Positions 5,461 to 28,542 of a stretch of DNA of 31,998 nucleotides are shown one piece after another. The stretch is from positions 1-31,998 of IMG/VR virus record IMGVR_UViG_2724679538_000010; one strand, given 5' to 3'. The translations under genes were made by a program, and so were the position numbers. Source of the DNA: a virus (lineage: Duplodnaviria; Heunggongvirae; Uroviricota; Caudoviricetes). Every line of letters starts with the position of its first letter. Position 1 is the stretch's first letter. The notes under the pieces were generated by a model. It saw only the letters and a list, made by a program, of their open reading frames with translations. It had not been told where the DNA came from and searched no databases.

Positions 5461-6651
5461 TTAATTGCTGTTAACCGAGGTGACCAGATTTGCCAGGTAT
5501 TTATCGGTAATACGCTGGCGCAGGGTCAGGTTTTCAAGAGGAGGCACCGGGGTATAGTCGTAGTCGATATACAGTTTTCCGGCCTTAAGGGTTTCCGCAT
5601 CGTTGGATTCTTCGCTGAACCAGCAGGTCGCATCCACGATATAGCCGTTTGTTTTCAGCTCACGGAATTTGGCATTGATGCCGTCAACGATGTCGCGAAT
5701 CAGCGTTGCGGTGATGGGCTTGTCCACCGCCCACATGTGCGCCTCAGCCATCGTGTCGGCCAGCACCTGCGCGGTGCGGGTGTAGTTTTCAAAGAGGAAC
5801 AGCGGGTCATCAGAGCAGGTACGGTTACCCCAGAATCGGAAACCGTCGCGTCGAATCAGCGTTGTGACGCCAGACTCGTTAAGCAGGTCAGCATCGGTAC
5901 CGGACTCCTGCAAATCCCAGAATACGGACGCGCTGATGCCGGTAACACCGTTTACCCCGACGTTGGACAGCGTTTTATGCCAGCCCTGCTCCTGGTCGAT
6001 TCTGGCACGCAGACCCAGCGCACGGGCGGTGGCATACGCGGTGGCGATGGTACTGGTGACCGTATCCCATGCGAGGAAATCCGGCCAGATGACCATCAGC
6101 TCACGCTGACTGAAATTCTGGCGGTAGGCTTTCACCTCGGAAATGGTTTTACAGCCCCATGCGCTGATATACCCGAAAGCGCGCAGCTTCTGGCAGACTG
6201 ATGCCAGTGCAACAGCCACCTCTTTGGTGTCCAGTCCCGGCACACCGAGAATACGCGGTTTAACACCGGTTACCGACTCTGCCGCCAGCAGGGCTTTCAG
6301 TCCGGTATACTGACCGTTTTCGTCAGTGGTGCCGATGATATTGGAAACGGTCTGCGCGAGTTTCGTTTCTTCGTCGTCGCCGGTGCCGTCTTCCACACGC
6401 ACGACAACGGTGACCGGTTTTGACTGGTCAGCGATGGCCTGCAGCGACGCCGCCAGCGTGCCTTTTTTACCGGCCTTTGCAATTGCGCTCTGCACATTGG
6501 TAATCAGCACCGGTTTATTGAGGGGGAAGGTTTCCGCATCTGCATCGCTGGCCGTACAGACCATGCCGACAATGGCAGTGGATACGGTGGAAATGACGCG
6601 GGTGCCGTCGTTAATCTCCAGCACCTGCACGCCGTGATGATAGTCACTCAT
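5461..6651 (-). CDS. FI: Contractile tail sheath protein FI
   Basis: 396-aa ORF; length and position match P2 FI sheath protein. Confidence 0.9.
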   Translation of the reverse strand: MSDYHHGVQVLEINDGTRVISTVSTAIVGMVCTASDADAETFPLNKPVLITNVQSAIAKAGKKGTLAASLQAIADQSKPVTVVVRVEDGTGDDEETKLAQTVSNIIGTTDENGQYTGLKALLAAESVTGVKPRILGVPGLDTKEVAVALASVCQKLRAFGYISAWGCKTISEVKAYRQNFSQRELMVIWPDFLAWDTVTSTIATAYATARALGLRARIDQEQGWHKTLSNVGVNGVTGISASVFWDLQESGTDADLLNESGVTTLIRRDGFRFWGNRTCSDDPLFLFENYTRTAQVLADTMAEAHMWAVDKPITATLIRDIVDGINAKFRELKTNGYIVDATCWFSEESNDAETLKAGKLYIDYDYTPVPPLENLTLRQRITDKYLANLVTSVNSN

Positions 6652-6754
6652 CCGTTTAACTCCGTGGTTAATGGGTGCAACTATTTTCTGTTGGGTAGTG
6701 CATGAGACGCTATTTGACCTGGCTGGTCAGTGGATGAAACAACAGATAAAGAAA

Positions 6755-6775
6755 AGGCGGGCAATCCGCCCGCCT
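6755..6775 (-). terminator. Intrinsic-terminator-like hairpin oriented for the minus strand (8-bp GC stem aggcgggc/gcccgcct, 5-nt loop, followed on the minus strand by TTTTCTTT)
   Basis: Inverted repeat read directly from the sequence; T-rich tract only on the minus-strand side. Confidence 0.45.
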
Positions 6776-7139
6776 GCCTTGATTTATACTCTCTCAGTTT
6801 CCAACTGACAAATTACGTAACCAAAATTCTGTCAAATCTGACCGCCTGTTTGAGCAAGAAGCGGATGTTTGCCCCTTTTCTCGTCGTTGATGAGGTTTTA
6901 ACGAACCAATATATCGGCCAAATGGCAGCTAATCAGGATGCAGAACGAGTGGGTATTGAATGCCTTCAGGTTAGGCCTGACAAAATCCCCAGGGGAAAAT
7001 ATCAACCTTTGGACTTTCTGATTACTTAATGAAAGATGGCTTTAGGCATCTTTTTTATGATAATTTCTGGCAAACTACTTTTTTTGTTTATATAAAAACT
7101 ATAATATTGGGTTTAACTCACCCAAAGGGAATATTTAAT

Positions 7140-8063
7140 ATGGCAATAAATCAAAAAGACATCAAATTGTTGTGGGGCCGTTCCGGAAATCGATGTGCAA
7201 TTTGTAGGAGAGAGTTGACACAGGATAAGAACTCCGTTAATTCCGCATTTACACTGGGGGAACAGGCACATATTATTGGAGAGAAGGAAGATGCGGCTCG
7301 AGGAAAATCGAATTTAACTCTGGATGAAAGAAATAGTTATCACAATCTTATTCTCCTTTGCCCAAACCATCATACGGAAATTGATAGAAATGTAGAAGAT
7401 TGGCCAGCCGAAAAACTCTATAACGTTAAGTCAGCACATGAGTTATGGGTTTCTGAAACTCTTAGTAGAGTTGAAGATAAATTTTTTCTAGCCAAGCAAG
7501 TTTCAGTAACTTCAATAATTGACTCCGCAGTAAAATATTGTCGTTTAGAAAATTGGCAGAATTGGACTAGCTTTGCATTATCATCAGATCCTAAGTGGCC
7601 TAAAAATTTACCCGATGATATATTTGAATTTCGGCAAAAAGTCATTTCCGCTATATGGCCTAATGAGTTTGATGAACTGCGAAGAGCCACTGAAACATTT
7701 TCCATAACCCTTAACATAGCCGCCCAAACTTTCATGGAACATTCTAAACTTTATGAAGACACTTATTATCCAGATAAATTTTATAAAACTGGTGGCTGGA
7801 ATGTTAATTATGAAGAAGACGTTGAAAAATATAAGCAATGGATTCAAGAATGTCATAATTGGTTAGTGGAAGCCACAAAATCAGCTAATTGGTTTGCTGA
7901 TGTTGTTCGTAGAGATATTAATCCCATGTTCTTTGCAGAGAAAGGGCGATTCTTAACCATGGAAGGTGATATTCTAGGTTTTAAGGCTAAATTACATGTT
8001 TATACCAAAGAACAAAGAGATTCACTGCCTGACTCACTTGATTTGACAATGAACCCTCATTAA
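7140..8063 (+). CDS. HNH-nuclease-domain protein with an uncharacterised C-terminal domain; cargo gene at the P2 Z/fun position
   Basis: N-terminus has C-x2-C (CAICRR), AHIIGE and NLILLCPNHH motifs consistent with an HNH zinc-finger nuclease fold; AT-rich codon usage unlike the flanking backbone; start chosen at the Met preceded by AAGGGA, an upstream in-frame ATG at 7029 is the alternative. Confidence 0.6.
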   Translation: MAINQKDIKLLWGRSGNRCAICRRELTQDKNSVNSAFTLGEQAHIIGEKEDAARGKSNLTLDERNSYHNLILLCPNHHTEIDRNVEDWPAEKLYNVKSAHELWVSETLSRVEDKFFLAKQVSVTSIIDSAVKYCRLENWQNWTSFALSSDPKWPKNLPDDIFEFRQKVISAIWPNEFDELRRATETFSITLNIAAQTFMEHSKLYEDTYYPDKFYKTGGWNVNYEEDVEKYKQWIQECHNWLVEATKSANWFADVVRRDINPMFFAEKGRFLTMEGDILGFKAKLHVYTKEQRDSLPDSLDLTMNPH

Positions 8064-8197
8064 GAACTAAGTGTAATGATTACTATTATATCATACAAAT
8101 TGCTCCAACAAGAATGGTGGCATTGAAGAGTTCAATGCGAGACTACTATAATGGCATAATCATGCTTTTAACATAAATTATTCATAATGTTATAAAC

Positions 8198-8221
8198 GTC
8201 CGCTCTTGGCACAGAGCGGAC
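8198..8221. terminator. Hairpin between convergent genes (9-bp stem gtccgctct/agagcggac, 6-nt loop), likely bidirectional terminator
   Basis: Perfect inverted repeat lying between the 3' ends of the HNH gene (+) and G (-). Confidence 0.5.
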
Positions 8222-8270
8222 TGTCAGATTAGGCTTTACTCTGTGCTATAGGTATGTAAGCTCATACAAC

Positions 8271-8798
8271 TTATTGCGGCATTTCCGGCCATTCAGGATT
8301 TGCAGGATCCACACGGCTGACCAGAACGCTGTAGCGTTCCCATGACTCCAGTCGTGCACGTTCCTCATCCGTCGCCATATTCAGCCTGACAGCGCGTTCC
8401 AGTGGCTGAATAACGCTTTCCGCTTCGGAAAGTAACGCGGCCTTTTGTGATTCTGCCTGTTGTTGCTGTTCATCTGCCGTATAAATCCGTTTAACCACAG
8501 CACCATCCTTAAACATCCATTTACCTGAGTCGTCAGCACGTCGATTGGAGGTAATATCAGGAACCTCAACAACGCTAAAACCTTCAGGATTAAGCGTTGA
8601 AGCATCTCTGGTGATGGCGACAATAATATTATTTTCATCGTAAACAATCTTTATTGTGTCTGGCTGAAAGTTCTTCACTTCCTCATACCAGTTTTTTCCG
8701 TCTTCGGACCATAACCAGATAACATCAAAATTCTTTGTTAGCTGATATTGTTCTTTTGTTTTTGGATTACCTGACTTAATGTTCTTTAAATGCTGCAT
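8271..8798 (-). CDS. G: Tail fibre assembly protein G
   Basis: 175-aa ORF immediately downstream of the tail fibre gene; length matches P2 G; AT-rich 5' half typical of tail fibre assembly genes. Confidence 0.8.
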
Positions 8799-8801
8799 AA
8801 C

Positions 8802-10811
8802 TTACACCTGCGCAACGTTATACCATGTGCCATTGATGTACTTTTGTATCGGCCTGAAGATGGCTTCATCATCGCCATCTACTTCACCAATGATTCTTAA
8901 TCCGGTAATCGTGTGTCCGGCTTTTTCATAACGACCACCTCGCGCCATCAATTGAACAACTCGCGTACCCAGGCGAACATCTTTCACATAGCGGGAATCA
9001 AAATTCCCCCAATTGCTGGGTTGCATCTGACCATTAACAGCAAATATTACCGAGTTATCTGTATTTCGCTGGCTATAGAAATGCCATCCGGACTCATCGC
9101 CTAACTCTGCAACCACTGGACGGTTGGAAGCACCCCATAAATTAAAGGTAATATTCTTCGTGGATGTGTTAGAGCTGGATAGCGAGAACTTTTTACTATC
9201 CCCTGCCTGAATATTTTTAAAAGCAATAGCCACTCCATTCTGAAAACGGAATACACGCTGACTGTTAGCATAAACATCAAGAATACCGTCTCCATTCTGT
9301 TTAAATCCGGTATCATTATCACCAAGGACAATAGAGCTACCACCTAGTGCATTCGTCGTACCAACTCCAAGACAGCCATTAATGACGGCATTAACAAGAA
9401 TATTTAGTGCATCCCATTTCAGCTTCATCAGGTCTTTTGTTGTGGTACTCTGGCGGCTTCTCCATTTGAAATATTCATTGCCGTTATCCCCCGTTTCAAA
9501 CCACATGTATGAATCAGCGTCACCATCGGCATCATTTTTAAATCCAATCTTCGCCCAGTCAGTATTTCGAATCCAGGCAAGGATTGAGTCGTTTTCAAAA
9601 GTAATCCCGCCGGACAAGATATCGCCATTCTTTTGCACCGCGTTCCTGGCCCTGTTTACCGTTTCCTGCAAACCGAGATATTCGATAACGGCGGCAACGG
9701 TCGATTTAGCCAGAATATCCCGCCCGACTTTTGTCAGGGTCGCCAGGCTGGCAACATCATTCCCCGTAAAATACGGAAACCTGTCTGCCGCAGTAGCAAG
9801 CCCCGCCAGCGCCGTCAAAGTGGCATCTTTCGGTTGCTTACTCGCAAGCGCATTAGTCATGGTGGTAGCAAAATTCGGGTCATTGCCCAGCGCCGCCGCC
9901 AGCTCGTTCAGCGTATTCAGTGCGTCAGGCGACGAGTCTACAAGGGCGGCAATCGCGGCCATAACGAAAGCCGTGTTTGCGATCTGAGTATTATTCGTTC
10001 CCTGTCGCGCAGTTGGCGTCGTTGGCGTTCCGGTCAGTGCAGGGCTGTTTAATGGCGCTTTCTTGTTCGTTTCATCCATTACCGTCTTAACGGCTTTTGG
10101 TGTTGCGGCGAGCGTTTCAGACGTGCTGTTAGTCGCACTACTGAGCTGAACAAGGCCTTTTCGCGCGGTGGTGGCGTCCTGTGCAGTATATTTCCCGTTA
10201 GCAAGGTCATAGGCGGTCTTTACCGCTTTCGGCGTTGCAGCCAGTGTTTCAGACGTGCTGTTGGTCGCACTGCTTAACTGAGTAAAACCTTTTGCGATCA
10301 GCGAGGCGTCAGGGTGACGTCGTGACTGTTCATGTTCTGCAATTTTGTCATCAACGTAATCCTGCGTCGCCATCACCGTTGTGGTGTCAATGGTCAGCTC
10401 CACTGAGGCCACACTGCTGACGATGATGACCATGCGGCAGGTCTGCGAACGCCCTGAGCCTTCGGCAAGAGCTGGCTTATAACTTTCGGCCATGTTCGCC
10501 ACGGCAATTAACGTTCCCGCATCATCGTACAGGCCAAGCTCACGCATCCAGAAACCGCCCACCTCCGGCGGAATAACCAGCTCTGCGATAATATAATTAC
10601 TGTTTCGTTTGTCCTGACTGATTTTGTTCAGCGCATGTCGCCAGACTTCGTGGATAAGCCCGGTCTGTCCGGCATCCGGGACAGGCAATTTACCACCGCC
10701 ATCCCCGACGGCCATCGTGGTAATGTTGACCTTCCGCCCTCCCGGTGCGGTTGCCGCTGCAAGCTTTGCTGCACCGGCAGTGGTGATAACGGTTTTGAAT
10801 TTTGTGCTCAT
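8802..10811 (-). CDS. H: Tail fibre protein H
   Basis: 669-aa ORF, conserved N-terminus MSTKFKTVITTAGAAKLAAATAPGGRKVNITTMAVGDGGG typical of P2-family tail fibres; internal tandem repeat. Confidence 0.9.
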   Translation of the reverse strand: MSTKFKTVITTAGAAKLAAATAPGGRKVNITTMAVGDGGGKLPVPDAGQTGLIHEVWRHALNKISQDKRNSNYIIAELVIPPEVGGFWMRELGLYDDAGTLIAVANMAESYKPALAEGSGRSQTCRMVIIVSSVASVELTIDTTTVMATQDYVDDKIAEHEQSRRHPDASLIAKGFTQLSSATNSTSETLAATPKAVKTAYDLANGKYTAQDATTARKGLVQLSSATNSTSETLAATPKAVKTVMDETNKKAPLNSPALTGTPTTPTARQGTNNTQIANTAFVMAAIAALVDSSPDALNTLNELAAALGNDPNFATTMTNALASKQPKDATLTALAGLATAADRFPYFTGNDVASLATLTKVGRDILAKSTVAAVIEYLGLQETVNRARNAVQKNGDILSGGITFENDSILAWIRNTDWAKIGFKNDADGDADSYMWFETGDNGNEYFKWRSRQSTTTKDLMKLKWDALNILVNAVINGCLGVGTTNALGGSSIVLGDNDTGFKQNGDGILDVYANSQRVFRFQNGVAIAFKNIQAGDSKKFSLSSSNTSTKNITFNLWGASNRPVVAELGDESGWHFYSQRNTDNSVIFAVNGQMQPSNWGNFDSRYVKDVRLGTRVVQLMARGGRYEKAGHTITGLRIIGEVDGDDEAIFRPIQKYINGTWYNVAQV
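10082..10292. repeat. Imperfect tandem duplication of about 130 bp inside H, encoding the repeated peptide QLSSATNSTSETLAATPKAVKT
   Basis: Two near-identical blocks (gtttcagacgtgctgtt(a/g)gtcgcact...) visible in the sequence and in the H translation. Confidence 0.7.
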
Positions 10812-18649: not shown

Positions 18650-19504
18650 TCAGCAGTTCGTCATCAGGGCGTCACCGCCACCGCCGGTGGCTTTACTGCG
18701 GCGCTGCTGGGTCAGACTTTCGGTGTGGTCGAGACTGTTTTTCAGGCGGGTGAATGCCTGACTGGTTTCATCCGCCCTGTCAGTCACCTCCTGCTTAAGT
18801 GCGGAAAAGGCGGTTTCCATCTCAGCAAGGCGCTGCTCAGTGGCGCTCAGTTTTTCCTGCACATGCTCAGCGACAGCGGTCACCGCTTCATGCACGTCAT
18901 TCAGACGGGCGTCATCGCTGGCCTGTTTGCGGCCAAAAATGGATTTCACCTTTTCGGTCAGGGCGGTGAACACGGTTTCAGGCAGGTCTTCAAATTCCAG
19001 CTCAACAGGCGTTGCCACTGAAATCAGGTTTTCAGGGCTTAATTTGAAGCGGTTCAGGGGGTTGTGTTTTGCCGTGCGGCAGAATTCCAGGTATTCCGTA
19101 CCGAGGCTTGCCGGGTCATCGGTGACGGCCAGCCCCACCAGATAACATTTGCCGGTGTTGGCAAAGTTCGGCTGAATTTCCATTGAGGTGTAGACCTTCT
19201 GCGCGGCCTTGTTCATCGCGATAAGGTCATCGGTCGGGGTGATTTTCGCAAACAGCGCCCATTTGCCTTTCAGCGCCGAATCGTCATCAATCTTTTCGGC
19301 CTTCAGTTCGACCACATCGCCATAACGTTTAAAAATGCCGTCAGGCAGGATGCCGCGCAGATGTTCCAGGTTAATGCGGCAACCATAGACTCGCGGGTCA
19401 AAGGTTTCGGCCATTTCCTGAATATCCTGCGCACTGATGACACGCCCGTCACAGGTGTCACCCTCAACGCCGATACGAAAGAATTTTGAGACTTTTTTTG
19501 CCAT
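18650..19504 (-). CDS. O: Capsid scaffold/protease O
   Basis: 284 aa from MAKKVSKFFRIGVEGDTCDGRVIS...; start moved to the Met with an SD. Confidence 0.85.
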   Translation of the reverse strand: MAKKVSKFFRIGVEGDTCDGRVISAQDIQEMAETFDPRVYGCRINLEHLRGILPDGIFKRYGDVVELKAEKIDDDSALKGKWALFAKITPTDDLIAMNKAAQKVYTSMEIQPNFANTGKCYLVGLAVTDDPASLGTEYLEFCRTAKHNPLNRFKLSPENLISVATPVELEFEDLPETVFTALTEKVKSIFGRKQASDDARLNDVHEAVTAVAEHVQEKLSATEQRLAEMETAFSALKQEVTDRADETSQAFTRLKNSLDHTESLTQQRRSKATGGGGDALMTNC

Positions 19505-19677
19505 TGTCAGGAGTCCTGAATAGTGATTAGAGGAGTCACATGTCGGCATCAGTTTCCTGACGATGCGCATCCTCCGCCATCAGTCCCGGATGGCTTATCA
19601 CTGACACAACAGCACCTTAGCGAATCGCGGGGCGCGACTCAGTAGCCTTGCCGTGTATTCATCACGGCGAGGTATTC

Positions 19678-21450
19678 ATGACCATCACCACAGACACCAC
19701 TCTTTTACACGACCCGCGTCGTCAGGCGGCGCTGCTGTACTGGCAGGGATTTTCCGTGCCGCAGATTGCCGCCATGTTGCAGATGAAACGCCCGACGGTG
19801 CAGAGCTGGAAACAGCGCGACGGCTGGGACAGCGTTGCCCCCATCAGCCGTGTCGAAATGAGTCTGGAAGCGCGGCTGACCCAGCTCATCATCAAACCGC
19901 AGAAAACCGGCGGTGACTTCAAGGAAATTGACCTGCTCGGACGCCAGATTGAACGACTGGCACGGGTCAACCGTTACAGTCAGACCGGCAACGAGGCAGA
20001 CCTTAATCCGAACGTCGCTAACCGCAACAAAGGCGGGCGTCGCAAACCGAAAAAGAATTTTTTCAGTGACGAGGCCATCGAAAAGCTGGAGCAGATTTTC
20101 TTTGAGCAGTCTTTCGAATATCAGTTGCACTGGTATCGCGCCGGGCTTGAGCACCGCATCCGCGATATCCTGAAATCCCGCCAGATTGGCGCGACGTTTT
20201 ATTTTTCCCGCGAGGCGCTGCTGCGCGCCCTGAAAACCGGTCATAACCAGATTTTTCTGTCGGCCAGTAAAACGCAGGCGTATGTGTTCCGCGAATACAT
20301 CATCGCCTTTGCCCGGCTGGTTGACGTTGACCTGACCGGTGACCCGATTGTCCTGGGCAATAACGGCGCAAAACTAATTTTTCTCGGCACCAACTCCAAC
20401 ACCGCACAGAGCCATAACGGCGACCTGTACGTCGACGAGATTTTCTGGATCCCGAATTTTCAGGTACTGCGTAAGGTGGCATCAGGTATGGCCTCACAGA
20501 GTCACCTGCGTTCGACCTATTTCTCCACCCCGTCCACGCTGGCGCACGACGCCTACCCGTTCTGGTCGGGTGAACTGTTCAACCGGGGACGCGCCAGCGC
20601 CGCCGAACGCGTGGAAATCGACGTCAGTCATAACGCCCTTGCCGGTGGGCTTCTCTGTGCGGACGGCCAGTGGCGGCAGATTGTCACCATTGAGGACGCC
20701 CTGAAAGGTGGCTGCACGCTGTTCGACATTGAGCAGCTCAAACGTGAAAACAGCGCCGACGATTTTAAAAACCTGTTCATGTGTGAATTTGTTGACGACA
20801 AGGCGTCGGTGTTCCCGTTCGAGGAGCTGCAACGCTGCATGGTCGACACGCTGGAAGAATGGGAAGACTATGCGCCGTTTGCCGCGAATCCGTTCGGCTC
20901 CCGCCCGGTATGGATTGGTTACGACCCGTCACACCGTGGCGACAGCGCCGGATGCGTGGTGCTGGCACCGCCGGTGGTGGCCGGTGGCAAATTCAGAATA
21001 CTTGAGCGTCACCAGTGGAAAGGCATGGACTTTGCCACTCAGGCGGAATCCATCCGCAAACTCACCGAAAAATACAACGTCGAATACATCGGTATTGATG
21101 CCACCGGCCTCGGTGTCGGCGTGTTCCAGCTCGTGCGCTCGTTCTATCCCGCCGCGCGCGATATCCGCTACACGCCGGAAATGAAAACCGCAATGGTGCT
21201 CAAGGCAAAAGACGTTATCCGCCGTGGCTGTCTGGAATATGACGTCAGCGCCACCGACATCACCAGCTCGTTTATGGCTATCCGCAAGACCATGACCAGC
21301 AGCGGACGCAGCGCCACCTATGAGGCCAGCCGCAGCGAGGAAGCCAGCCACGCCGACCTCGCCTGGGCAACCATGCACGCCCTGTTAAATGAGCCACTCA
21401 CCGCCGGTATCAGCACTCCGCTGACATCCACCATTCTGGAGTTTTACTGA
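19678..21450 (+). CDS. P: Terminase large (ATPase) subunit P
   Basis: 590 aa from MTITTDTTLLHDPRRQAALLYWQGFSVPQIA...; divergent from O; SD GAGGT upstream. Confidence 0.9.
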   Translation: MTITTDTTLLHDPRRQAALLYWQGFSVPQIAAMLQMKRPTVQSWKQRDGWDSVAPISRVEMSLEARLTQLIIKPQKTGGDFKEIDLLGRQIERLARVNRYSQTGNEADLNPNVANRNKGGRRKPKKNFFSDEAIEKLEQIFFEQSFEYQLHWYRAGLEHRIRDILKSRQIGATFYFSREALLRALKTGHNQIFLSASKTQAYVFREYIIAFARLVDVDLTGDPIVLGNNGAKLIFLGTNSNTAQSHNGDLYVDEIFWIPNFQVLRKVASGMASQSHLRSTYFSTPSTLAHDAYPFWSGELFNRGRASAAERVEIDVSHNALAGGLLCADGQWRQIVTIEDALKGGCTLFDIEQLKRENSADDFKNLFMCEFVDDKASVFPFEELQRCMVDTLEEWEDYAPFAANPFGSRPVWIGYDPSHRGDSAGCVVLAPPVVAGGKFRILERHQWKGMDFATQAESIRKLTEKYNVEYIGIDATGLGVGVFQLVRSFYPAARDIRYTPEMKTAMVLKAKDVIRRGCLEYDVSATDITSSFMAIRKTMTSSGRSATYEASRSEEASHADLAWATMHALLNEPLTAGISTPLTSTILEFY

Positions 21451-22484
21451 TGAGCAAGAAAAAAGGGAAAACACCGCAACCTGAGGCAAAAAAAATGACC
21501 GCCAGCGCCCCGAAAATGGAGGCTTTCACCTTTGGTGAGCCGGTGCCGGTACTCGACCGCCGTGACATTCTGGATTACGTCGAGTGCATCAGTAACGGCA
21601 GATGGTATGAGCCGCCGGTCAGCTTTACCGGTCTGGCGAAAAGCCTGCGTGCTGCCGTGCATCACAGCTCACCGATTTACGTTAAACGCAATATTCTGGC
21701 CTCGACATTTATCCCGCATCCGTGGCTTTCGCAACAGGATTTCAGCCGCTTTGTGCTGGATTTTCTGGTGTTCGGTAATGCGTTTCTGGAAAAGCGTTAC
21801 AGCACCACCGGTAAGGTCATCAGACTGGAAACCTCACCGGCAAAATATACCCGCCGTGGCGTGGAGGAGGATGTTTACTGGTGGGTGCCGTCCTTCAACG
21901 AGCCGACAGCCTTCACGCCCGGCTCCGTGTTTCACCTGCTGGAGCCGGATATTAATCAGGAGTTGTACGGCCTGCCGGAATATCTCAGCGCCCTTAATTC
22001 TGCCTGGCTGAATGAGTCGGCCACGCTGTTCCGCCGAAAGTATTACGAAAATGGCGCTCATGCCGGATACATCATGTACGTCACCGATGCCGTGCAGGAT
22101 CGCAACGATATCGAAATGCTTCGCGAAAACATGGTCAAGTCGAAAGGCCGCAACAACTTTAAAAACCTGTTTCTCTATGCCCCACAGGGGAAAGCCGACG
22201 GCATTAAAATTATCCCCCTCAGTGAAGTGGCGACGAAGGACGATTTTTTTAATATCAAAAAAGCCAGCGCCGCTGACCTGCTGGACGCGCACCGCATCCC
22301 CTTTCAGTTGATGGGCGGCAAGCCGGAGAACGTCGGGTCACTGGGAGATATTGAGAAAGTGGCAAAGGTCTTTGTCCGCAATGAGCTTATCCCGCTACAG
22401 GACAGGATCCGCGAGATAAACGGCTGGCTCGGTCAGGAGGTCATCCGCTTTAAAAACTACTCACTGGACACTGACAACGGCTGA
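21450..22484 (+). CDS. Q: Portal protein Q
   Basis: 344-aa ORF; length and position match P2 Q. Confidence 0.9.
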   Translation: MSKKKGKTPQPEAKKMTASAPKMEAFTFGEPVPVLDRRDILDYVECISNGRWYEPPVSFTGLAKSLRAAVHHSSPIYVKRNILASTFIPHPWLSQQDFSRFVLDFLVFGNAFLEKRYSTTGKVIRLETSPAKYTRRGVEEDVYWWVPSFNEPTAFTPGSVFHLLEPDINQELYGLPEYLSALNSAWLNESATLFRRKYYENGAHAGYIMYVTDAVQDRNDIEMLRENMVKSKGRNNFKNLFLYAPQGKADGIKIIPLSEVATKDDFFNIKKASAADLLDAHRIPFQLMGGKPENVGSLGDIEKVAKVFVRNELIPLQDRIREINGWLGQEVIRFKNYSLDTDNG

Positions 22485-22488
22485 ACAT

Positions 22489-22512
22489 CGCCGCCTGCGG
22501 GCGGCTTTTTTA
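22489..22512 (+). terminator. Rho-independent terminator after Q (stem ccgcc/ggcgg, loop tgcg, then T6)
   Basis: GC hairpin followed by TTTTTT directly downstream of the Q stop codon. Confidence 0.6.
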
Positions 22513-22653: not shown

Positions 22654-22672
22654 GTGCTTTCCCCGCCTCGCC
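22654..22672. other. cos: cos site: 19-nt cohesive-end sequence
   Basis: gtgctttccccgcctcgcc is the exact reverse complement of GGCGAGGCGGGGAAAGCAC, which I recall as the P2 cohesive end; position next to Q is as expected. Confidence 0.7.
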
Positions 22673-22909
22673 CGCCCGCTTCATAGGGCGGTTTTAATGC
22701 AGTTGCTTAGATACTATGGATCCGCACCAGCTCTGACCGCAAGCAGCCGGAACGGGCATCCCCGACGCATGCAAAAACATTCACTTGTTGCATGCACGGC
22801 TTATTTAATGACAAATCAACTTAAATTTACAAAATCCACAGGTATGGATACTTTGCGAACATGATAGGCTTACGAGAATTATCTAGCCTATTTTTGACCG
22901 GAGCAATGT

Positions 22910-23851
22910 ATGCAAGGTAAAGTTGACGAACAGCAATCCAATGATATTGAAGCTGAGTTTGGATACTATCCAGTAGAAGTTAACGTTGAAACTGATGATT
23001 TTTCTTTACTTACTTTACCCGGTCTAGCGGAAAAAACAAATCTTATAAACAATCACAGAAATGTTATTAACGGTTGGATATACCCAGGAAACCAAGAAGT
23101 ATATAACCTCAATGGAGGCATATCCACAATGCCTTTTAGCCAACGAGTATTTGGCTTACCCAAAACACACTCACTAAAATTAAAAAATACATCTTCACTA
23201 GAAACTCTCAATTTTGCTGTGTGGTGTCTGTCTTTTTTCAAAGGGATAAGATTAACAACTACTGATGCCGGTTTTTTAGACGCAACCCCAATAAAACCCA
23301 GCAAATTAACTGACTTTATTCTGGTCAAGTGCTCTGAAAAAGAGGTTATAGAATTAGCACTCAAATACATGTCTAGCGAGAAAAAAACCAAACACGCACC
23401 AATAAATATCGCAGCAATAGTGCATGCACTATTTTTATCCCAAAACCCACAATACCTTAGCTTCGAAAAATTCCAGTATCTTTATATGGCACTGGATAGT
23501 TGCTTTGCTTTAACATGGGCAGAAAAGAACAAGTGTACAGAAAAGACTCTAAATCACTCCAGGCGCTTGAAGTGGATCTGCAAAACTTATGGCATACCAC
23601 GACCATCATGGGTTACAGGCAAAAAAAACATTACAAACATCCGCAATGAAAACTTTCATGAAGCTATGTTTCATGGTCAACCACTTGGCTTTACCACTAT
23701 TAACAATTATCAATATGGAGATGACATATTACAACAAATGCAGGCTTTAATTTGCCGATTGCTCGTTGCGATTCTTGGTGTTAACGCCCCCGATTACATC
23801 ACATCGAACGTGAACTCTCGTGAATATCATTCACTAACATTAAAAATATAA
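22910..23851 (+). CDS. Hypothetical 313-aa protein, AT-rich cargo gene, no recognisable motif
   Basis: Long uninterrupted ORF with GGAG SD upstream; composition and codon usage unlike the prophage backbone. Confidence 0.55.
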   Translation: MQGKVDEQQSNDIEAEFGYYPVEVNVETDDFSLLTLPGLAEKTNLINNHRNVINGWIYPGNQEVYNLNGGISTMPFSQRVFGLPKTHSLKLKNTSSLETLNFAVWCLSFFKGIRLTTTDAGFLDATPIKPSKLTDFILVKCSEKEVIELALKYMSSEKKTKHAPINIAAIVHALFLSQNPQYLSFEKFQYLYMALDSCFALTWAEKNKCTEKTLNHSRRLKWICKTYGIPRPSWVTGKKNITNIRNENFHEAMFHGQPLGFTTINNYQYGDDILQQMQALICRLLVAILGVNAPDYITSNVNSREYHSLTLKI

Positions 23852-23866
23852 AACGACTAAAAATAC

Positions 23867-23892
23867 TCTCCAGTAACAATAAGTACTGGAGA
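23867..23892. terminator. Hairpin between convergent cargo genes (9-bp stem tctccagta/tactggaga, 8-nt loop); T-rich flank on the minus-strand side
   Basis: Perfect inverted repeat between the stop codons of the 313-aa gene and the membrane-protein gene. Confidence 0.5.
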
Positions 23893-23933
23893 TGTATTAT
23901 CACTAAAACCAATAAAAAATCACAACTAATGCT

Positions 23934-24533
23934 TTACTTAGATAGTTTGTCTTTAATTATATTCAGAACACCAATTATTAATTCACTGATTGGCGTGGCC
24001 AACTCAATAGTATTAGATGTCGACTTTGTTCTAAAGTCTTTATCTGTCGGGTGTTGAAATGCTGATTTAAGAAGAGTCAAAAGCAAAGTTAAACCCACAC
24101 CAAGGATGAATGCAACAATAGCTATTAGAGAACTGGCCGATAACCAATCGGTGGATAAACCAGAAATAGATTTTCTAACTTTATTAGTGTCTGAAGATGG
24201 TGTTATCCTCTCATCAGCCATCTTCGGATCCGCAGATAAAGCAGAACATTTTTCTGCTGAAACACAAGTTTGTGCATCTACTTTTTGTGTTATCGCTGTG
24301 GCAATACTGCTTTTCGCTTCCAGCAAGCCATTTCCAACAGCCAAAGCAAAGTTAAGCCCCTGCCATAGAAATGTACAAGCAAAACAAAGCACAACGGCAG
24401 AGAGCACTAATCGCATACTTCTACGCTCTATACCATCCCGTCTATCTCGCCTTATAAGGATATCAGGATCTAAATCGCCCTTAGGAGTGGTTCCTTGCTC
24501 TGGGGACTGTCCAGATAAATCAATATCAGCCAT
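23934..24533 (-). CDS. Predicted two-helix membrane protein (199 aa) with charged N-terminal region; putative effector
   Basis: Two hydrophobic segments (LVLSAVVLCFACTFLWQGLNFALAV and LIAIVAFILGVGLTLLLTLL); co-directional with and 66 bp downstream of the peptidase gene. Confidence 0.6.
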   Translation of the reverse strand: MADIDLSGQSPEQGTTPKGDLDPDILIRRDRRDGIERRSMRLVLSAVVLCFACTFLWQGLNFALAVGNGLLEAKSSIATAITQKVDAQTCVSAEKCSALSADPKMADERITPSSDTNKVRKSISGLSTDWLSASSLIAIVAFILGVGLTLLLTLLKSAFQHPTDKDFRTKSTSNTIELATPISELIIGVLNIIKDKLSK

Positions 24534-24538
24534 AAAAA

Positions 24539-24572
24539 AATCACCCTTACATATACAAACGTAAAGGTGATT
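24539..24572 (-). promoter_or_regulatory. Intergenic hairpin plus U7 tract between peptidase and membrane genes; intrinsic attenuator that also occludes the membrane gene SD
   Basis: Minus-strand RNA AAUCACCUUUA-(12 nt loop)-UAAGGGUGAUU-UUUUUUU-AUG: 11-bp stem with one G.U pair, 3' arm contains the SD-like AAGGGUGA. Confidence 0.5.
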
Positions 24573-24599
24573 TTAAACAGGTTAAAAGTTAAAGGCTAA

Positions 24600-25085
24600 T
24601 TAATAAGCCATTCCTAAGCTCTTTAAGCGCCAATGCATAGCGGCTTCTGATACATTAAAGATGCTTGCTAATCTCAAAGTGCTATCAATACCTTCTCTGG
24701 ATACCAATTGACGTATAGCAGACTCAGGCATTAACAACTCAGCAGCAAACTTGTTTGCTTCAACCTCACGGTAATCACGAGCACCTGTTGAATAATTCCC
24801 GACATTATCCCGATGGTACTCTCCGTCCTGGGTATGCCCCAGCACATGATGACCTAACTCGTGTGCAACAGTAAAACGTTGACGATTAGAATGTTCACTA
24901 GAATCAAAATAAATCCTATGGACACCCTTTTTGATGACAGCCAGACCGCTTAACCCATCGTTGTTATAAGCCGATTCCTCAAGTGCTTCAACACGAGCAC
25001 CCCACGCTTTAGCAAGCTTAAACGGATCGACAGGTAGTCGGCGATCCCAATAGCGGTCAAGCAGTTTTTTAGCTGCATAGCTCAT
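24600..25085 (-). CDS. ImmA/IrrE-family (COG2856-like) zinc metallopeptidase, 161 aa
   Basis: HEXXH motif in FTVAHELGHHVLGH followed by EANKFAAELLMPE, characteristic of ImmA/IrrE peptidases; strong SD AGGAGG 6 nt upstream of the ATG; no HTH domain in the protein. Confidence 0.75.
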   Translation of the reverse strand: MSYAAKKLLDRYWDRRLPVDPFKLAKAWGARVEALEESAYNNDGLSGLAVIKKGVHRIYFDSSEHSNRQRFTVAHELGHHVLGHTQDGEYHRDNVGNYSTGARDYREVEANKFAAELLMPESAIRQLVSREGIDSTLRLASIFNVSEAAMHWRLKSLGMAY

Positions 25086-25807
25086 GGTTGCCTCCTACGT
25101 TAAAAAAGTTAAGTATGCACAGCCATATCACAGTTGTTATTTTATGTCAAGGCTGTTTTTCAGCCATTACTATAACACTAATCCACGTTTTCCCATAACA
25201 TTTTCGACATCATATATGCATTCAGTTCTGCATATAGCGCTTATCTTTGCTGATAACACGAGATGAATACGCGCAATCAGCCCACGATTTATAAAAAACC
25301 TTATAAATCAGAACATTGAGTTAAAAAAAACACTAACTACTTGCGCAGCGAGTTGTTAAACCTCAGCGACACTAAAAGAAAATTTCAGAGTCACCGCAGC
25401 TTCCACAGAAAACGCAACATAATGATTTTATTGGAATTTATGGCGCTATTTTTAATTACTTGTTTAAATCCGCCATATTGAAACTGTGCATTTCTAGCCA
25501 CTCACAACTTTAAAAAATTTACATTGCTTTCAAGACCTTATCATCCGTAGTCTCTGCTTTTTACTTTGAGCTATATCAAAAAAAGCTCAAACATCCTTGA
25601 TGCAAAACCAGTATTACACAACATAAAATGCAACCAGAAACAACGACATACCATATATTGTGTTGTTCAGGTCCTCTGTTCGGTGATATGCCAGATCACT
25701 TTGCGTTTAAACAGAGCATTATTTCAGGGCAAGACTTCGCTCAATAGTCACTCCGCCTTAGAAGCGCATATATCGGCGGAAATTGCCCTCTGCTTACAGG
25801 AGGCGAT

Positions 25808-25921
25808 ATGAAGAAGTGCTATTACTGCATTCTCGTTCTGGCCCTCTTTGGCTATCCATATGGTAGTCCGAGTGGTTTGTCAGTAAACGTCAGTAATATC
25901 CATGTAAGTATTTTTCTTTAG
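25808..25921 (+). CDS. Possible small hydrophobic protein (37 aa, MKKCYYCILVLALFGYPYGSPSGLSVNVSNIHVSIFL)
   Basis: Consensus SD AGGAGG 7 nt upstream of the ATG; ORF ends just before a strong terminator; below the 60-aa cutoff of the ORF track; no homology evidence. Confidence 0.25.
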   Translation: MKKCYYCILVLALFGYPYGSPSGLSVNVSNIHVSIFL

Positions 25922-25933
25922 TATGCTTCAAAC

Positions 25934-25963
25934 AAAAAAACCACCTGCCAGGGTGGTTTTTTT
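25934..25963. terminator. Bidirectional rho-independent terminator (A7 - ccacc..ggtgg hairpin - T7)
   Basis: aaaaaaaccacctgccagggtggttttttt read directly; lies downstream of A on the minus strand and of the small ORF on the plus strand. Confidence 0.65.
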
Positions 25964-26223
25964 GCGCCCGTCATCAATCCGATGAAAGACTAGCAAGACT
26001 TCGCTCGAGATGAATTATGCTTCGACATAAAGTCACTCGCAATGGTTTTATTAACCGAAATAGATGCTCTTTTATGACTCGAATCAAATAGCTGCCTTCA
26101 ATTACATGCTAACGATTCAATACAATTTAGCCTTCTGATTCAACACGCTATTGCTCCTCATCTACCTTAGAGGTGCTTCGCATAATCCATTCAAAGACAT
26201 ATAAAATCACGCTGTATTTTTAC

Positions 26224-28542
26224 TCAAATGGGTAACAAAAATCCCGGCCAATCATCAGCGACCTGATAAGTGAAAGGTTTCCCGTCATAATTTACGGTCG
26301 CGCCACGCGCCAGCGCCTCAAGCTCCCATCGTTGCGGCCTGATACCGTTCTGAGCGAGATCAACGCGGATACGGGTAATTTGCAATCGTTCCGACCGGGT
26401 CAGCCTGGCCGACGGTGCTATTTCATGTGGTTTTAACGGGCTTCCGTTTCTTTGCTGACGATTTGGTGTTTTCAGGCCGTGCTTTAATGCACCCCTGAGC
26501 GTCCTCACGACCTCCGGGTCATTCCATTCGATAACACCGTCATCAACCAGATTAAGCACTGCTGCGGCGTGCTCAGAAGGCGAGGGAGCCGGTAACGAAG
26601 TATTACCGCCGGTGAGCTTTCCACAGTTATTGACAGGACTCCGAGGCGCGGCGATGCCGCTTTTTAAAGTCAAAGGCTCAACGACCGGAACTTTCGGCAC
26701 AATGCGCCAGTCCGTCGTTCTGGTGATATGAATATGACGCGCGCCGAGATGCGGCGCGTAAATGCCGACCACTCTCTCGACTTCTTCCTCGTATTCGTTA
26801 ACGTCATCCGACGGGCTACGAGCGACCCTGACAGTCTGACAATCGCGCGGGACATTTGCCCCGCCCTGCGCGCTGATATACAGCGCAAAATCGCCACTGT
26901 CTGCGGCGGCGCGTGCAGCCTCCACGCGTTCGTCAAATTCATCAGCAATGCTGACGCCGCGAGGCAATTTACGTAGCTCACGGTAAGCTCCCATTGTCGG
27001 CAGGCCAACCGTTTTAAATTGCGGGATGCGCCACGTTGACGCCCATGCGGTAACAGCCGCCGCAGTATCTTTCAGCGGTCTGCCGGTATCGTTATCGAGC
27101 TGACCATCCAGTGCATAGCCGTCGATATTTTTTGAAATGTATTTCGCGATATATCCCGCAGCACCGCCCCGGTTAAGGTGTTTTGCCTGAAAACGGTTTC
27201 GCGCGGCTCCTCTTTCGTCGCCATCCTCTTTGAGCGCATAGCGACGCATGATTTCGATAATCTGGTTACGCTGGCGTGGATTACAAAAAAGCATCATATG
27301 CCAGTGCGGCGTTCCGTCGTGGTGTGGCTCGACGACTCGCAAACCGTAGACCTGTAAATCATTATCCTTGAATGCCGTGCGCATCAGGCTCCAGATACGA
27401 CAGAGATAACGCTGCGCATCCTTTGGATTAAATGCCTCATCATTCCAGCCGTGATTAAGCTGGACGGTTTTATTTTCGCCTTTTCCAACCTGACGTGTCG
27501 GGTGATACTTTGACGGCGCGGTAAGCGTGATAAACATCCCCACATCACCCTCTGATGCGGCGTAACGCTCAATACCGGCAATGGTGTTCATCAGCTCCAT
27601 CCGGCGAATTTCAGGATTAGAAATACTGCCCATCACCTTACTGATAAGGTCGATGCGCTCGCCGGTTTCCCTGTTTTCAAGGTCACACGATTTAAGAAAT
27701 TCCAGATTTGCCTGGCGGCGCGCACGCACATCACGAATGGCATGTTTACTGGCATAAGGTGAACGGTCTTTATTGACCTCCCCGACAGCAATCAGTAACG
27801 CCTCATGCCAGCGCATACGCTGGCCTTTAAGCTGACTAATCCACCACTCATCGTTAAACAGGCGGGCAATGGCAGAATATGCCTGCCTCGTGGTCATCTG
27901 TCCTTTACGGTATTTTTTCCAGTAGAGAGGGGAAATATTGAAAGCACGTGCAGCGCCAGCAACATGACCATACAGGTGAGCCTGCGCCTCATCCGTAAAC
28001 AGCGATTCTTTTTCGCCATGCGCATCCACCCAGGCATCGCAGAGTTCCTCATACATCATGAAAAGCTGCGATGAGATACGGGCGGCAAACTTTTTCAGCT
28101 CCTTGTCATTCATTCCTGGCAGGCGCGCATAGTGGTCACGCTCTGCCAGAAACAGCAACGACGCGTCGGTGTTCATTTCATGGCGCTGATTCACACGCTC
28201 AATACGCGGCCATAAACGACGCTGAAAAGTGGATGTGAGGAAATAAAACCCGTGTACCGGACTTTTATTGCTCCGGATGTAGTCATAGCGTGAAGTAAAC
28301 AGCGAGCGCAAAAAGTAAGGCAGGCGGTTAATCGTGGATAAAACACCTTGCACCTGACGCATCTCGTCACGTGTAAGAGGTCTTTCTCGCCCGACGGCCT
28401 CGCGTGGCGCGTTCCATGCATAAGCACCGGTAAACGTCTCACCGGTGCCTGCGGCAAATGCTGACGGAGGGACAAAACGCCCGGAGGCTTTAACGGCCAT
28501 ATGAGCCAAAAGCCTCTGAACAACGCTTGCTGAGTTGCTCAA
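26224..28542 (-). CDS. A: Replication initiation endonuclease A (rolling-circle initiator)
   Basis: 772-aa ORF; conserved HUH-type region (PHHDGTPHWHMMLF) and paired Tyr region typical of P2 gpA family. Confidence 0.9.
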   Translation of the reverse strand: MSNSASVVQRLLAHMAVKASGRFVPPSAFAAGTGETFTGAYAWNAPREAVGRERPLTRDEMRQVQGVLSTINRLPYFLRSLFTSRYDYIRSNKSPVHGFYFLTSTFQRRLWPRIERVNQRHEMNTDASLLFLAERDHYARLPGMNDKELKKFAARISSQLFMMYEELCDAWVDAHGEKESLFTDEAQAHLYGHVAGAARAFNISPLYWKKYRKGQMTTRQAYSAIARLFNDEWWISQLKGQRMRWHEALLIAVGEVNKDRSPYASKHAIRDVRARRQANLEFLKSCDLENRETGERIDLISKVMGSISNPEIRRMELMNTIAGIERYAASEGDVGMFITLTAPSKYHPTRQVGKGENKTVQLNHGWNDEAFNPKDAQRYLCRIWSLMRTAFKDNDLQVYGLRVVEPHHDGTPHWHMMLFCNPRQRNQIIEIMRRYALKEDGDERGAARNRFQAKHLNRGGAAGYIAKYISKNIDGYALDGQLDNDTGRPLKDTAAAVTAWASTWRIPQFKTVGLPTMGAYRELRKLPRGVSIADEFDERVEAARAAADSGDFALYISAQGGANVPRDCQTVRVARSPSDDVNEYEEEVERVVGIYAPHLGARHIHITRTTDWRIVPKVPVVEPLTLKSGIAAPRSPVNNCGKLTGGNTSLPAPSPSEHAAAVLNLVDDGVIEWNDPEVVRTLRGALKHGLKTPNRQQRNGSPLKPHEIAPSARLTRSERLQITRIRVDLAQNGIRPQRWELEALARGATVNYDGKPFTYQVADDWPGFLLPI

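Follow-up and report, generated by a model that had tools for sequence, protein, structure and literature searches.

Among abortive-infection effectors, stand-alone HEPN nucleases form an emerging major class, in which the sensing of infection sets each member apart. The HEPN Solo defence element (HepS), encoded by the Gifsy-1 prophage of Salmonella, is an anticodon nuclease that acts by abortive infection and stays auto-inhibited until bound by a phage protein (PMC13043305). In ApeA, a pocket between the N-terminal and HEPN domains gates the HEPN domain, and the protein cuts tRNA anticodon loops (Gao et al. 2020; bioRxiv 10.64898/2026.01.26.701840). DARNA (PD-T7-3) is a stand-alone two-domain HEPN defence found on Escherichia coli mobile elements; its HEPN domain cuts tRNA, while its other domain senses single-stranded DNA (ssDNA) presented by SSB, the phage protein that binds such DNA (bioRxiv 10.64898/2026.02.22.705581). 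All three are HEPN anticodon nucleases that are turned on by a specific infection cue, i.e. a tail-tip protein for HepS, deoxydinucleotides for ApeA and SSB-presented ssDNA for DARNA. Additional validated single- or two-gene HEPN defences, namely DS-29, DS-38, DS-28 and DS-11, come from the DefensePredictor study (Science 2026, PMC13092281). This report concerns a gene for a 313-amino-acid (aa) protein in a 31,998-nucleotide (nt) stretch of Caudoviricetes DNA (IMG/VR record IMGVR_UViG_2724679538_000010, positions 1 to 31,998), the whole of which is referred to here as the window. Based on a structural model and a conserved motif, the gene on balance appears to encode a stand-alone HEPN ribonuclease (RNase) of a new ~300-aa family, acting as a single-gene abortive-infection defence that is carried by a prophage. 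What the family would bring to the class is the pairing of the usual Rx4H nuclease motif with an N-terminal domain that has no known match.

The 313-aa gene and its predicted HEPN domain

The gene and the parts of its product are as follows.

22910-23851, + strand: coding sequence, 313 aa, 35.7 kDa, pI 8.4, with an ATG start and a TAA stop
22900-22903, + strand: Shine-Dalgarno sequence GGAG, 6 nt 5' of the ATG and conserved in all alleles
22910-23329, + strand: N-terminal alpha+beta domain, residues 1-140, with the motifs FGYYP, LPKTH (H87 invariant) and GFLDAT
23330-23848, + strand: C-terminal helical domain, residues ~141-313, predicted to be HEPN, with invariant E186, R245, H250, G260 and R283
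23642-23659, + strand: R245-N-E-N-F-H250, the predicted Rx4H HEPN catalytic motif, followed by a near-invariant E251

HEPN domains are defined by a bundle of four helices, an Rx4-6H motif whose arginine is followed by a polar residue (N, D or H), and an upstream acidic residue, conserved in helix 2 near the motif (Anantharaman et al. 2013). Within the 313-aa protein, RNENFH at residues 245-250 is the sole Rx4-6H match, and N246 supplies the polar residue after R245. An earlier reading of the window, made from the letters alone and called here the sequence-only reading, had recognized no catalytic motif; that statement no longer stands. Across 28 aligned homologues (44-80% identity), R245, N246, H250 and E251 are invariant. 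When 45 sequences down to 26% identity are compared, only H87, G112, E186, R245, H250, G260 and R283 are invariant, with N246 and E251 conserved in at least 90%. The AlphaFold2 model, which has a mean predicted local distance difference test (pLDDT) of 81.7 and a predicted template modelling score (pTM) of 0.83, packs a beta-rich N-terminal part (residues ~13-140) on a helical C-terminal part, the core of which is an all-alpha, four-helix up-down bundle. E186, an invariant residue that begins the long helix (184-206) preceding the motif and lies outside any Ex3[KR] context, is plausibly the acidic residue of the definition. The one hydrophobic stretch (residues 273-291, Kyte-Doolittle value 1.76) forms the last helix of the modelled bundle and includes the invariant R283, and so the earlier view that the protein lacks a transmembrane segment was essentially right. 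On fold plus motif, the protein is assigned with high confidence to the HEPN superfamily, and the N-terminal alpha+beta domain, which resembles no solved fold, is proposed to be a sensor or regulatory domain.

Two matches from sequence comparison were rejected. Searches of the PDB with the protein and its family gave chance-level matches only, among them a beta-glucan exohydrolase (E 2.1) that was judged spurious. A match between the family profile and the N-terminal end of E. coli ribonucleotide reductase R2 (E ~0.02 over 41 residues, at window positions 23642-23720, residues ~244-284) was judged to be chance.

That the open reading frame (ORF) is a gene is not in doubt. The sequence-only reading had described it as a long, clean and AT-rich frame with a plausible Shine-Dalgarno sequence, and position, length and each of these traits were confirmed. 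The longest open frame of the island in which it lies spans 316 codons, whereas 300 shuffles of the island gave none above 153; the G+C content of the ORF is 0.368 (0.325 at third codon positions) versus 0.515 for the window; and the GGAG is kept in every allele. Between E. coli alleles, the ratio of nonsynonymous to synonymous divergence (dN/dS) is ~0.15, with dS saturated at >1. The 313-aa ORF is a real gene under purifying selection. The portal genes adjacent to it in the same allele carriers have a dS of only 0.13, indicative of near-identical phage backbones; because of this contrast, and of the low dN/dS, the alleles are read as old, selected ones set in near-identical backbones.

The cos-proximal hotspot and the one-gene module

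The elements that frame the gene are listed below, with the phage genes placed by the annotations of identical E. coli loci.

18650-19570, - strand: gpO scaffold gene
19648-21450, + strand: gpP terminase gene
21450-22484, + strand: gpQ portal gene
22490-22505, + strand: terminator-like hairpin GCCGCC-TGCG-GGCGGC followed by TTTTTT, found by scan directly after the portal gene
22654-22672: P2-type cos 19-mer, an exact match to the reverse complement of GGCGAGGCGGGGAAAGCAC
22672-22691, + strand: second G+C-rich terminator-like hairpin, followed by TTTTAA and adjoining cos
22707-22909, + strand: non-coding leader, the presumed promoter holder, which travels with the gene
22767-22795: inverted repeat GCATGCAA-N13-TTGCATGC in the leader, with 8-bp arms
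23862-23898: hairpin with a 9-bp core, TCTCCAGTA...TACTGGAGA, and an extended stem, in the 82-nt gap between convergent stops
26224-28542, - strand: gpA replication endonuclease gene

The window is a P2-like (Peduoviridae) prophage in reversed orientation relative to the P2 map. Its gpQ-gpA interval is a low-G+C island (0.36-0.43, with flanks of ~0.55). We take the 19-mer GGCGAGGCGGGGAAAGCAC to be the P2 cos sequence; its reverse complement at 22654-22672 marks the genome end, ~240 bp 5' of the 313-aa ORF, and linear phage records begin or terminate at this site. The gene is cos-proximal, as had been claimed. The gpQ-cos-gpA interval is a validated P2 defence hotspot, which holds old and tin in phage P2 and, in other P2-like phages, a range of exclusion systems that includes Old, Tin, retrons, DUF4238 and DprA-PRTase (Rousset et al. 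2022, PMC9122126). The 313-aa ORF sits where such cargo sits, between the portal gene with cos and gene A, in a position whose content varies among relatives. Elsewhere in the window, a second low-G+C island at ~6500-9500 (0.35-0.42 versus ~0.56) is presumably another P2-like cargo hotspot.

Two terminator-like hairpins separate gpQ from the 313-aa gene, which therefore needs a promoter of its own. The first of them, at 22490-22505, is conserved in other P2-like prophages and would shield the island from late transcription. In P2-like phages that lack the gene, homology ends between ~22706 and 22801. The leader is 93% identical to that of five of six other alleles (76% to MS15052), whereas the coding sequences share only 73-76%. 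With portal genes at a dS of 0.13, sequence divergence between the alleles thus begins almost exactly at the start codon, a pattern that suggests either allele swapping by leader-anchored recombination or strong constraint on the leader. Of the promoter-like sites, ATGACA-16-CAAAAT at 22808-22835 is the best, yet weak. Just 5' of it lies the inverted repeat at 22767-22795, which is kept in six of the seven alleles aligned, the exception being MS15052 with a single arm mismatch, and may be an operator or a packaging element of the cos-flanking region. The promoter region that the sequence-only reading had assigned to the gene is plausible: the two hairpins and the conserved leader of ~200 nt speak for it, and the number of sigma-70-like matches, considered further below, does not.

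At the other end of the module, the hairpin at 23862-23898 has a folding free energy of -17 kcal/mol (z = -5.5), and none of 200 shuffles folds as well. It lies between the convergent stops, where a shared hairpin had been reported, and is a probable bidirectional terminator that marks the 3' end of the module. Other alleles have a different hairpin at the equivalent place, and the sequence 3' of the stop differs between alleles. Gene, leader and terminator form a self-contained one-gene module.

Homologues, their contexts and rival explanations

The exact 313-aa protein is seen on 488 E. coli and Salmonella contigs, serovars Infantis, Derby and Agona among them, and it is 74% identical to ORF313 of P2-EC67. 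It had been called an orphan, a label that does not survive the 603 homologues found at E<=1e-3 in one database and the 652 found by a profile search of 1.84 billion representatives (50%-identity clusters), 195 of which fall below 1e-30. Nearly all of the latter 652 are full-length, at ~300 aa, and the hosts comprise Enterobacteriaceae, Aeromonas, Acinetobacter, Pseudomonas, Providencia and Stenotrophomonas, together with metagenomes. Among 5426 complete E. coli genomes, 99 carry the family, 47 at >=99% identity and 52 at 60-80%, and ~2158 match P2 backbones. The only library matches are PHROG 5937, of which the protein is a member, and PHROG 34836, both of them function-unknown; homology to a characterized phage structural or regulatory protein, which the sequence-only reading had named as contrary evidence, was not seen.

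The family recurs in defence and mobile contexts. In Pseudomonas aeruginosa, the homologue lies in an island with ParB_N and DUF932 genes, ~3 kb from Gabija, and in Acinetobacter seifertii it is directly downstream of a gene for DUF4238, which P2 hotspots have yielded as a validated single-gene defence (Rousset et al. 2022, PMC9122126). An identical 316-aa Providencia homologue occurs in two islands, each in a different genome (loci L029 and L030, positions 8001-8951 in each). Type I restriction-modification (RM) and GmrSD genes precede it in one of them; in the other, an integrase island, it lies between DUF3800 and AbiH plus TIR genes. Because the same protein sits in two different islands, this single gene has moved recently between defence islands. 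Other Pseudomonas homologues are in integrase/resolvase islands, the Stenotrophomonas homologue is cargo of a Tn7/Mu-like transposon, and that of Acinetobacter guillouiae is a moron within the structural region of another prophage.

The gene has already been flagged computationally by others, the HEPN annotation being new here. Table S10 of DefensePredictor lists a 313-aa allele of it, cluster WP_001620979, as a 'Predicted novel defense gene' with a mean log-odds of 9.68, and that study reports no HHblits link from the cluster to known defence proteins (PMC13092281). The cluster is the allele of strain 2012C-4227, one of three divergent E. coli contexts inspected. In the part of Table S6 consulted, the family is not among the cloned units, and four accession numbers are absent from the entire table; the family motifs are likewise absent from the sequences of the validated systems of that study. 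DS-40, a 311-aa match from the same source, is an unrelated membrane protein. The arrangement containing the present protein (WP_001517496) is in the loci list of Table S5 of Rousset et al. and absent from the table of the systems that they tested (Rousset et al. 2022, PMC9122126). Literature searches with the accessions, 'ORF313' and 'P2-EC67' returned nothing relevant, and a 2026 P2/P4 preprint assayed P4 cargo and not the 313-aa gene. The gene's own leader and terminator, the HEPN Rx4H motif, the P2 hotspot, the defence-gene neighbours and the DefensePredictor score support the suggestion, also made in the sequence-only reading, of an independent single-gene defence, and a defence role is predicted as likely.

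Several observations weigh against a HEPN defence nuclease. No Pfam, NCBIfam or PADLOC model matches the 313-aa protein, or 27 close, 10 distant and 9 longer homologues; no sequence-profile method ties the family to any named HEPN family; and hhalign of the family profile with DS-29, DS-38 and DS-28B gave <1% probability, i.e. no profile link to these three validated E. coli HEPN defences. A Foldseek search of the model against the PDB gave no match at E<=0.001, and the motif segment has low model confidence, with a pLDDT <50 at 246-249 and 256-261. Sigma-70-like matches in the island are at chance level (13 versus 9.4 +/- 2.8 expected) and do not locate a promoter. No antitoxin gene or RNA repeat was found that would keep a constitutively encoded RNase harmless. 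The Aeromonas homologue stands alone on the chromosome, surrounded by housekeeping genes and not by defence genes. Finally, no published phage-challenge, toxicity or RNA-cleavage data were found for any family member. The Pfam and PADLOC models for HEPN Abi proteins of the lactococcal type (AbiD/F, AbiJ, AbiU2, AbiV and the C-terminal domain of AbiA) gave no match either. Because the family is absent from Pfam, NCBIfam and PADLOC, current annotation pipelines overlook it.

Among the rival explanations, the one that survives best is an addiction toxin, of the toxin-antitoxin kind, that chiefly stabilizes the prophage or island. HEPN domains are common as toxins (HEPN-MNT, RnlA), the family rides mobile elements, and in three Pseudomonas loci a 73-aa XRE-family helix-turn-helix gene lies ~120-300 bp upstream on the same strand (L024, 7478-7699; L025, 3848-4069; L028, 1621-1842). 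That gene, possibly a regulator or antitoxin specific to the lineage, is missing, however, from the enterobacterial, Acinetobacter, Aeromonas and Providencia homologue loci. Across the contexts, no partner gene is shared. A HEPN-MNT system of type II/VII was rejected given no adjacent MNT gene in the window or in the other contexts (~19 distinct loci), as was a type III toxin-antitoxin or AbiF-like HEPN, there being no tandem repeats of the antitoxin-RNA type and no Rfam match near the gene, and no match to Pfam Abi_2. A 55-aa ORF inside the leader is not preserved in frame in other alleles. A primary role in addiction is improbable on these grounds, although addiction and abortive-infection roles can coexist.

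It is also quite improbable that the protein is an RNase serving the phage, whether in counter-defence (e.g. through breakdown of cyclic-oligonucleotide signals, an activity of some HEPN/Csm6-type proteins) or in RNA processing or host shut-off during the P2 lytic cycle. The protein has neither CARF nor any other signal-binding domain known from ring nucleases, and many homologues reside not in phages but in chromosomal defence islands, close to RM, Gabija, AbiH and TIR genes. Furthermore, the gene is accessory, being in 99 of the 5426 E. coli genomes when ~2158 have P2 backbone matches, and DefensePredictor scores it as a defence gene.

A catalytically inert HEPN-fold protein with a ligand-binding or regulatory task, or a moron without current function, is very unlikely. 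Non-nuclease HEPN domains do exist, with MtlR and the substrate-binding domains of nucleotidyltransferases as examples, but inert ones typically lose the Rx4-6H motif (Anantharaman et al. 2013). The model is uncertain around the motif; nevertheless, its R and H are invariant over the 45 sequences, with N and E conserved alongside, and the purifying selection seen in the dN/dS of ~0.15 argues against a functionless gene.

The neighbours of the gene, by which the last rival is judged, are two.

23934-24533, - strand: 199-aa protein with two hydrophobic segments, i.e. a membrane protein
24600-25085, - strand: 161-aa Peptidase_M78 (ImmA/IrrE) protein, best PADLOC match capP (1e-30)

Both face the 313-aa ORF, in keeping with the convergence that had been described. 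At first sight the three genes belong together. The peptidase/membrane pair is in 50 complete E. coli genomes, 47 of them at >=99% identity, and 46 genomes cover the whole 3.9 kb; set against the 47 genomes with the >=99% allele of the gene, these counts mean that the window allele is essentially always with the pair and that the divergent alleles are not. In addition, Rousset Table S5 gives gene and pair as one arrangement, and the two share the intergenic hairpin. The 52 of 99 carriers with divergent alleles tell otherwise. In the three such contexts inspected, the gene has the same position and orientation with unrelated neighbours (DinI-like plus small ORFs; ORF226 plus DUF2158; IS2 plus DUF3850), and other P2-like phages also have it in that position and orientation with different neighbours. 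Yersinia phages have the gene without the pair. Conversely, phage NC_070905, which lacks the gene, has a peptidase 88% identical to that of the window, a homologue of the membrane protein and the same 1.1-kb spacer, and Rousset Table S5 also lists the pair without the gene. Outside the enterobacteria, no M78 peptidase adjoins the homologues in the contexts examined, and the convergent orientation means that gene and pair are not one operon. The 313-aa gene is genetically independent of its neighbours, and the notion, raised in the sequence-only reading, that it is a third component of the M78-peptidase/membrane system (e.g. with the protease activating or inactivating the RNase) can be set aside as the least probable of the readings. 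The three-hypothetical-protein system of Rousset et al. (Rst_3HP) was rejected as well, as there was no PADLOC match and the gene is separable from its neighbours.

The neighbouring unit (23934-26223), consisting of the M78 peptidase, the membrane protein and a 1.1-kb stretch without an annotated gene, may be a separate defence candidate. The NC_070905 copy of the 1.1-kb spacer has 87% nucleotide identity to that of the window, and both copies preserve an 81-aa ORF with a TTG start (25566-25811, + strand). Sub-threshold Rfam matches on both strands of this stretch, at 25855-26021 (RNAI at 27.8 bits, where the gathering score is 47, as well as P9 and Phe_leader), are probably chance, though they point to a possible structured region.

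Proposed action and comparison with described systems

Returning to the 313-aa protein as an abortive-infection RNase, a one-gene cargo module (leader, gene and terminator) that a P2-like prophage carries in its cos-proximal gpQ-gpA hotspot might act as follows. The lysogen would express the gene from its own leader, and the protein would be kept inactive. Once a competing phage infects, the N-terminal alpha+beta domain, packed on the HEPN domain, would sense a cue, and two HEPN domains would then build a composite R-x4-H active site. Metal-independent cleavage of RNA would ensue, the target being tRNA anticodon loops, by analogy with HepS, ApeA and DARNA, or else mRNA; translation would halt and the infection abort. 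For this specific mechanism, trigger-gated cleavage of RNA or tRNA, the chances are put at about even. Rather doubtful, if conceivable, is a further idea, that the N-terminal domain (invariant H87 in LPKTH, FGYYP, GFLDAT and D135) and the HEPN domain make up a new sensing pocket or a second active site, such that the family would represent an unrecognized sensor class with a cue unlike those of HepS, ApeA and DARNA. If that were so, the saturated synonymous divergence would reflect old specificity variants swapped between phages.

Were the 313-aa protein indeed an abortive-infection nuclease, a compact (~0.95-kb) defence gene with a new trigger-sensing module would be gained, one more P2-hotspot arrangement would be explained, and predictions of how susceptible clinical and food-chain Enterobacteriaceae are to phages would be affected. 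Conceptually, the result would be unsurprising, since location, domain class and machine-learning score agree.

With P2 old/tin and the other hotspot cargo, the 313-aa gene shares its slot, next to cos and convergent with gpA; sequence and domain content, however, are unrelated. Like DS-29, DS-38, DS-28 and DS-11, it is an E. coli accessory gene, here with a predicted HEPN domain, that falls outside classical annotation. DARNA is comparable as a stand-alone two-domain protein with a HEPN domain, but its HEPN domain is N-terminal (R117-H122) and its ssDNA-binding sensor C-terminal, whereas the motif of the present protein is toward the C-terminus (residue 245 of 313); with the domain order reversed and no match to the PADLOC PD-T7-3 model, identity with DARNA is ruled out. 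ApeA offers the same single-protein architecture of non-HEPN N-terminal parts followed by a C-terminal HEPN domain. It is, however, ~580 aa and mainly helical, with N-terminal, Mid and split HEPN_ApeA parts, in contrast to 313 aa and a beta-rich N-terminal domain here. Given this difference in architecture, and given that HEPN_Apea and ApeA_NTD1 (Pfam) and ApeA (PADLOC) matched none of the 38 members scanned, identity with ApeA is ruled out too. HepS is a minimal HEPN protein (motif R100-H105) that lacks an N-terminal alpha+beta domain and resides on a lambdoid rather than a P2-like prophage, and its family was drawn up with homologues >250 aa excluded (PMC13043305). The 313-aa length, the conserved 140-aa N-terminal domain and the lack of a sequence match to PDB chains, HepS entries included, rule out identity with HepS. 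HepS is nonetheless the product of a single prophage gene that lies among accessory genes, and it is a HEPN protein with a canonical Rx4-6H motif; for the 313-aa protein it provides the best functional analogy.

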